A stretch of DNA of 42,251 nucleotides from Escherichia phage PhiR40_1: the sequence record PV340560.1; one strand, 5' to 3'. The translations under genes and the position numbers were made by a program. Positions within the stretch are counted from its first letter, which is position 1, and each line of letters begins with the position of its first letter. Shown here one piece after another: positions 16,237 to 16,587 of the stretch. Under the pieces are notes generated by a model. It did not search any database. It saw only the letters and a program-made list of their open reading frames with translations, and was not told where the DNA came from.

Positions 16237-16587
16237 ATGACTCAAAACTATGAACTGATTGTGAAAGGGATCCGCAATTTTGAGAATAAAGTTACGGTAA
16301 CTGTAGCGTTACGGGACAAAAAACGCTTTGACGGTGAAATTTTTGACCTGGACATCTCGCTGGACCGTGTTGAAGGTGCCGCGCTGGAGTTTTATGAGGC
16401 AGCAGCCAGAAGGAGCATCAGACAGGTCTTCCTGGATGTTGCTGCCGGGTTATGTGAAGGGGATGAGCAGTCGCCGGAAAAGCGCCCCGTAATTTTAGAT
16501 GCGCAGAATGTGTGGATAACCTACAAAGGAAAGCTACCAGGAAGAATTACTGGTTCTCTGAAGACTCCTCCGGAATCACAACCTTAA
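16237..16587 (+). CDS. Hypothetical protein inserted between holin and endolysin
   Basis: 116 aa, SD GGAGAG, no recognised family. Confidence 0.5.
   Translation: MTQNYELIVKGIRNFENKVTVTVALRDKKRFDGEIFDLDISLDRVEGAALEFYEAAARRSIRQVFLDVAAGLCEGDEQSPEKRPVILDAQNVWITYKGKLPGRITGSLKTPPESQP

Follow-up and report, generated by a model that had tools for sequence, protein, structure and literature searches.

The genome of Escherichia phage PhiR40_1 (sequence record PV340560.1; 42,251 nucleotides, one strand, all of which is called the window here) carries an open reading frame (ORF) of 116 codons at 16237..16587 (+ strand; ATG start, TAA stop), placed between the genes for an S21-type pinholin (S) and a signal-anchor-release (SAR) endolysin (R). 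The ORF is, with practically no room for doubt, a member of the YdfR/DUF1327 family: its product matches Pfam PF07041 over residues 1 to 112 (146.7 bits against a cut-off of 25; E, 2.4e-43) and the PHROGs phrog_406 and phrog_2091 (E, ~1e-68), and all matched PHROGs are of unknown function. The original prediction, made from the DNA letters, had described a 116-amino-acid (aa) frame between pinholin and SAR endolysin, with a reasonable Shine-Dalgarno sequence, a 63-bp gap before the endolysin gene, no signal peptide or transmembrane segment, and no recognisable family. The layout was confirmed, with Pfam identifying the neighbours as holin and lysozyme, the Shine-Dalgarno element being GGGGAGAG, and the endolysin gene starting at 16651; a hydropathy scan likewise found no hydrophobic, membrane, or SAR segment in the protein (highest 19-residue Kyte-Doolittle mean, 0.71; isoelectric point, 5.5). 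The statement on the family was wrong, given the Pfam match.

The lysis region of the window (15950-17700; 1751 bases compared) is 100% identical to that of Escherichia phage PhiR55_1 (PV340571.1), where the gene is annotated "hypothetical protein, YdfR family". The ORF DNA is present in 4275 of 5426 complete E. coli genomes, with identical copies annotated "YdfR family protein", and the N-terminal domain of DUF1327 (N-domain) in 3579 (about two thirds), many Shiga toxin (Stx) phages included. A protein search returned 343 clusters at 90% identity, whose named sources were all Escherichia or Shigella, bar one partial record labelled Enterococcus faecalis. Conservation of the frame and synteny had been suggested as checks, and both held: the frame is kept in these 343 clusters, and the K-12 Qin prophage has the same order, essQ-ydfR-rrrQ. 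The ORF is thus a real gene and no chance frame, because it is kept across the clusters and because the ratio of nonsynonymous to synonymous substitutions (dN/dS) of its N-domain is low (see below). A pattern scan using one genome per species found the gene only in Escherichia and Shigella and in two metagenome bins, which resemble contamination by E. coli. In two metagenome-bin contigs (L007, labelled Veillonella parvula metagenome-assembled genome [MAG], and L009, labelled Bacillota MAG), S is 94% identical to that of the window, with ydfR and R adjoining, and the L007 matches equal K-12-type loci exactly in identity and spacing; both contigs are probably mis-binned E. coli sequence.

NCBIfam holds no model for the protein, and it matched none of the lysis families of Pfam and PHROG, holin families included. 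Gene, family, and position alike have been known from the K-12 genome onwards, and public records carry their annotation. In the literature, DUF1327 is mentioned in one paper, in passing; for ydfR, we found one 2026 study (PMC13232886), the lists of one screen (PMC3879167), and otherwise only a table entry in an E. coli paper. A lead in the lysis-timing literature was set aside, as it concerned an unrelated Salmonella phage protein.

Alignment with K-12 YdfR divides the protein into a conserved N-domain (residues 1 to 74; 82% identity, 96% positives) and a C-terminal tail of 42 residues, which is unrelated to the remainder of the K-12 protein. For residues 1 to 76, AlphaFold (34-sequence alignment; predicted local distance difference test [pLDDT], 87.2) predicted antiparallel strands at 5-14, 18-27, and 34-43, followed by a long helix at 50-74; in the full-length model, residues 74 to 116 had a pLDDT of <50. 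Neither model had informative structural neighbours, and the PDB holds no entry related in sequence. Two residues, Y53 and E54, are invariant family-wide, and Y5, present in the window protein, is at least 90% conserved. The N-domain is common to all relatives compared, which are 72 aa (phage Evi), 103 aa (K-12), 114 to 116 aa (window type), 169 to 183 aa, or 263 to 287 aa (Stx phages) long; their tails differ, being unrelated or longer, and the long ones had no Pfam match. Against relatives, the dN/dS of the N-domain was 0.23 to 0.44 in the informative comparisons, and this ratio indicates that the domain is under purifying selection. At the 14 loci for which all three proteins were compared, identity was 47 to 95% for YdfR, 77 to 98% for S, and 91 to 98% for R, and no clear co-variation was seen by eye; divergence was mosaic (at locus L005, for example, S was 80% and YdfR 94% identical). 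Internal or tandem duplications of DUF1327 were observed in proteins P0069 (196 aa), P0186, and P0192 (170 to 176 aa), and at locus L032 (4001-4531) such a tandem gene is flanked by Q and by a holin of another type (Phage_holin_2_3).

In the lysis cassette, ydfR appears to be an optional passenger of a variable slot right behind the pinholin gene and no core lysis gene. Its ATG lies 4 nucleotides (nt) past the stop of S in the window, and 4 to 5 nt past the holin stop, on a Shine-Dalgarno sequence inside S, in 14 of 14 Escherichia/Shigella-type loci. In phage mEp332, the S protein is identical and the lysozyme gene comes directly after S, without ydfR, and in phage Stx2 II R begins 4 nt past S on the same GGGGAGAG element; of the 437 phage records that have an S21-type holin, 100 have a YdfR homologue and the other 337 lack one. 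The view of the original prediction that the ORF is inserted between normally adjacent genes therefore stands. Among the complete E. coli genomes, the S-ydfR junction occurs in 3616 and the N-domain in 3579, and the 3' half of S was found at 9949 places compared with 4882 for the N-domain; by these counts, ydfR, where present in E. coli, always adjoins S and accompanies roughly half of these holin genes. Compared with two other loci, the window is homologous up to codon 112 (…KTPP), where homology breaks, to resume ~60 nt before the R start, so that the 3' ~55 to 60 nt of the gap represent a conserved R leader. Between codon 112 and this leader, the other two loci hold 290 to 480 nt with coding modules and reverse-strand ORFs, and the slot is almost empty in the window.

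The two roles offered by the original prediction, a lysis regulator or a late-transcribed moron, fared differently. A moron fits better, as the flanking genes are adjacent in relatives (mEp332, Stx2 II) and DUF1327 occurs at no fewer than six other junctions, among them tail junctions and sites upstream of other holins, distant from any pinholin/SAR endolysin pair; it is no textbook moron, since the consensus scan found no promoter-like or terminator-like site of its own, and its base composition is not distinct (GC content, 0.473, versus 0.481 for S and 0.509 for R). Measured against holin-associated lysis regulators, the protein has neither the membrane or SAR segment nor the similarity to holins of a membrane antiholin, and the family is not linked to holins throughout, with members in the tail clusters of ES18, Oslo, L019, L023, L024, L028, L029, and L031.

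We infer that S, ydfR, R, and Rz/Rz1 form a single unit, transcribed from the late promoter downstream of Q, because no promoter-like or terminator-like site was found on the + strand from 15972 to 17822 (by consensus scan only) and because the PhiR55_1 annotation has a lambdoid layout. The hairpin at 15956-15972 marks the upstream limit of this unit, Q-modified polymerase presumably reading through it, and the hairpin at 17822-17841 closes the unit. The endolysin leader (16588-16650; …GATAAATATCCATG) has no recognisable Shine-Dalgarno sequence. It is kept in loci with differing ydfR tails and shows partial homology to the 3' end of the ydfR coding sequence of K-12, which there overlaps the start of R (ATGA). 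One frame crosses the 63-bp gap and finishes on the start of R; it has no start codon, and we read it as a probable relic of a K-12-type ydfR 3' end that today serves as the R leader. A programmed frameshift into this frame was considered and dropped, as a slippery motif could not be discerned and the end of ydfR is variable among relatives. No reverse-strand ORF of significance was found at the window locus. The features are collected in Table 1.

Table 1. Features of the lysis region of PhiR40_1 and convergent partner genes at related loci (partner positions are those of the respective locus)
Feature	Position	Strand	Basis
Terminator-like hairpin GGCCACGTCAGGTGGCC with T-run, between DNA methylase gene and S	15956..15982	+	Pattern scan
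S, S21-type pinholin, 71 aa, dual-start motif MKSM	16017..16232	+	Pfam PF04971 Phage_holin_2_1 (E, 2e-35); PHROG holin families; translation
Shine-Dalgarno sequence GGGGAGAG in last codons of S, 7 nt 5' of ydfR ATG	16222..16229	+	Junction sequences of 10 loci
ydfR-family gene (DUF1327), 116 aa plus stop	16237..16587	+	Gene reported here
Conserved N-terminal domain, aa 1-74	16237..16458	+	Alignment with K-12 YdfR; AlphaFold pLDDT, 87.2
Exchangeable C-terminal tail, aa 75-116	16459..16584	+	Alignments; low-confidence prediction
63-bp gap from ydfR to R; 3' ~55-60 nt, conserved R leader	16588..16650	+	Alignments and frame translation
R, SAR endolysin, 177 aa	16651..17184	+	Pfam PF00959 Phage_lysozyme (E, 2.2e-24)
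Rz, i-spanin	17181..17648	+	Pfam PF03245 (E, 8.1e-29); phrog_13
Rz1, o-spanin lipoprotein, +1 frame, embedded in Rz	17401..17607	+	Pfam PF06085 (E, 3.7e-21)
Terminator-like hairpin closing the S-ydfR-R-Rz/Rz1 unit	17822..17851	+	Pattern scan
Convergent partner, family A	L014 2744-3040; L017 693-992; L021 768-1070; L028 696-1001		
Convergent partner, family B	L015 3227-3514; L018 335-616; L029 4244-4519; L031 1879-2160		

The pinholin/SAR endolysin cassette around ydfR is standard. Residues ~8 to 24 of the endolysin are Gly/Ala/Ser-rich, and E35, D44, and T50 stand in E-8-D-5-T spacing; from general knowledge of R21/P1 Lyz-type enzymes, we take these to be its SAR segment and catalytic triad. 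The GenBank entry that matches, PV340571.1, lists no coding sequence at the position of Rz1 in its annotation table. Just past Rz and before the hairpin at 17822, a 50-aa ORF (17636-17788, + strand) whose N-terminus is strongly hydrophobic matches nothing in Pfam and is annotated as hypothetical in PV340571.1. Between the Q/late-promoter region and S, the stretch 14897-15982 (+ strand) holds a DNA adenine methylase gene (350 aa by the record annotation) and, behind it, the strong terminator-like hairpin at 15956-15972; this looks like another late-leader insert. At the left end of the window (~222-1212; record positions 206-1196), the PhiR55_1 annotation has a YafM/YafO-type antitoxin-toxin pair.

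To survey distant members, a profile of the family was run exhaustively against 1.84 billion representative proteins and returned only 90 DUF1327 clusters. Among these are stand-alone proteins of 72 to 76 aa, equivalent to the N-domain, whose genes lie in sense orientation in late operons, mostly away from any holin. They were found between tail genes M and L (Salmonella phages ES18 and Oslo; loci L019 and L028), between L and K (L023 and L024), between the tail chaperone genes (G/T) and the tape-measure gene (H) (L029), after I (L031), upstream of a gpM-like gene (L017), and upstream of unrelated holins (L021 and L032). Most of the DUF1327 genes examined outside Escherichia are followed, within 4 to 28 nt, by a convergent ORF of 83 to 182 aa. 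Two families of such partners, phrog_25324 and phrog_10490, neither with a known function, accompany DUF1327 repeatedly at several late-operon junctions: family A in the S-R slot of E. coli phage Evi, 5' of the gpM-like gene, between M and L, and 5' of other holins, and family B between M and L, between G/T and H, and after I. The M-L pair of family B is that of ES18, in which gp24 (DUF1327) is followed by its partner, gp25, both being annotated as possible morons. It is as if DUF1327 and its partner move together as a mobile cassette of the moron type. The window holds a single DUF1327 copy and no convergent partner. PADLOC-DB defence models matched neither the window protein nor the long variants, ES18 gp24, or four convergent partners.

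For the K-12 protein, a 2026 study recovered ydfR codons 1 to 72 three times in a bacterial two-hybrid screen and obtained a two-hybrid signal between full-length YdfR and residues 1 to 597 of RNase E (PMC13232886). Rne1-598 co-eluted with Strep-YdfR from lysates, and DNase-resistant nucleic acid co-purified with YdfR (PMC13232886); as the co-purification had no nuclease control, bridging by RNA is possible. Overproduction of K-12 YdfR altered few transcripts and did not slow growth, and the gene is essentially silent in normal culture (PMC13232886). The RNase E-binding segment of K-12 (residues 1 to 72) is exactly the segment conserved in the window protein. Because of this, and because the family is not tied to lysis genes, we tentatively favour, at a little short of even confidence, a reading by analogy with K-12 in which YdfR of the window is a soluble, late-made accessory protein whose N-domain may bind RNase E and/or RNA. 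The protein would be made late in infection, in the cytoplasm, alongside the lysis proteins, and its N-domain, as in the K-12 orthologue, would bind to RNase E, at its N-terminal, catalytic half, and/or to RNA; a small protein binding such a host factor could alter the processing or decay of late phage RNAs or of host RNAs. On this model, it would be no working part of the pinholin/SAR-endolysin/spanin machinery.

A broader version, which we regard as improbable, is that the 74-residue DUF1327 domain might be a portable RNase E/RNA docking module, late-expressed by temperate enterobacterial phages either alone or fused to exchangeable tails, with the post-pinholin site in E. coli coupling its dosage to the lysis programme; in a variant, it would act as a late antagonist of the convergent partner. 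If true, phages would encode a class of modulators of host RNA decay that is very common and has gone unrecognised.

Three other explanations were weighed against an RNase E/RNA-binding accessory protein. YdfR might instead be a cytoplasmic regulator of lysis timing, which would bind the cytoplasmic part of the pinholin or the unreleased SAR endolysin and delay or sharpen triggering, in the manner of the soluble regulators T4 RIII or P1 LydB. The constant position of ydfR behind the holin stop in the 14 Escherichia/Shigella-type loci speaks for such a role, as does the near-equal frequency of the S-ydfR junction and the N-domain among complete E. coli genomes (3616 versus 3579). The Keio ydfR deletion is, moreover, listed as positive with chlorophenol red-β-D-galactopyranoside (CPRG), that is, as envelope-leaky or lysing (supplement of PMC3879167); this phenotype is weak evidence, because a polar effect of the resistance cassette, switching on the rrrQ endolysin gene downstream of it, could be the cause. 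Some 77% of the phage records with an S21-type holin have no ydfR, S-R cassettes of this kind occur in complete deposited phage genomes, and members outside Escherichia sit in tail clusters away from holins. The protein has no membrane segment and matches no PHROG or Pfam lysis family, and within the same loci it is far more divergent than S or R and does not clearly co-vary with them. A role in lysis timing is unlikely in our judgement.

We give similarly little credence to the proposal that the gene is the orphan half of a mobile two-gene moron cassette, in which the late DUF1327 protein, or its transcription, would counteract or regulate a partner expressed by the prophage (of an exclusion, defence, or toxin-like kind), the window copy having lost its partner and kept a partner-independent role or none. 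The recurrence of the same DUF1327-partner pairs at different junctions argues for it, and, in the loci examined, DUF1327 proteins linked to family A group together in sequence (P0168 is 43 to 54% identical to P0171 and P0196, versus 35 to 36% to the family-B-linked P0183, P0187, and P0193); the slot between codon 112 and the R leader, empty in the window, holds reverse ORFs in loci L003 and L004. The gene is partnerless in both the window and the K-12 Qin prophage, and yet its N-domain is very common and stays under purifying selection; the partners fall into heterogeneous families, none with a known function, neither gene of the pair matches a PADLOC defence model, and overproduction of K-12 YdfR was without toxicity (PMC13232886). 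That ydfR is a decaying or functionless remnant retained inside an essential operon is highly improbable. Many versions are truncated, internally deleted, or frameshifted, and the tail is highly variable and predicted at low confidence, as a remnant would be; set against these are the dN/dS of the N-domain and its confident AlphaFold model, the persistence of the domain at ~25 to 40% identity in other phage lineages with Y5, Y53, and E54 invariant, and the K-12 protein, which accumulates in soluble form and shows specific co-purification (PMC13232886).

The practical value of these results is a corrected annotation, in which the ORF is a YdfR/DUF1327 member and no orphan. As a genome feature, ydfR is ordinary, and only two points are mildly unexpected: its modular build and the convergent partner that recurs in relatives. 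If the binding of RNase E or RNA is real and relevant in phage growth, the gene would provide a common prophage-encoded input to host RNA decay, which would also explain its retention in a late operon. Handles for experiments are offered by the constant N-domain and the exchangeable tail, by natural phages that share an identical holin but differ in carrying ydfR, and by the convergent partner seen repeatedly in relatives.

Several known systems invite comparison. T4 RIII and P1 LydB are small cytoplasmic proteins, and P1 lydB adjoins the holin gene lydA; the analogy to YdfR is functional only, and DUF1327 is not confined to lysis cassettes. The phage RNase E modulators T7 gp0.7, T4 Srd, and phiKZ Dip are products of early or middle genes, and we know of no sequence or fold relationship between them and YdfR; this analogy, too, is functional, with the gene of the window lying in a late lysis unit and contact with RNase E expected only if the K-12 result transfers.

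Within the family, one of the closest known relatives is K-12 YdfR (b1555, P76160), encoded in the Qin cryptic prophage in the order essQ-ydfR-rrrQ-rzpQ/rzoQ, which is that of the window. Both are DUF1327 genes 4 nt past an S21-type holin gene, with residues 1 to 74 at 82% identity. They differ in the C-terminal part, which is unrelated and spans 29 residues in K-12 compared with 42 in the window, and at the downstream junction, where K-12 ydfR overlaps the endolysin start (ATGA) and the window has the 63-bp leader instead; of the two proteins, the RNase E and RNA data concern that of K-12. ES18 gp24 and the stand-alone 72- to 76-aa proteins of lambda-like tail clusters share with the window protein the N-domain (PF07041; ~25 to 40% identity, with Y5, Y53, and E54) and the sense orientation inside a late operon, and differ from it in being tailless, in lying between tail genes, and usually in having a small convergent ORF. 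The long YdfR variants (169 to 287 aa; phrog_2091 and phrog_1085; for example, Stx2-converting phage 86 orf5 and H-19B) have the position after S and the N-domain as in the window, and several also have its middle segment, EKRPxILEAQxVxITYKGKLPGRITGSLKTPP. Unlike the window protein, they carry added C-terminal modules, either coiled-coil-like or larger domains without a Pfam match; YdfR of the window is the minimal form, ending right after KTPP.
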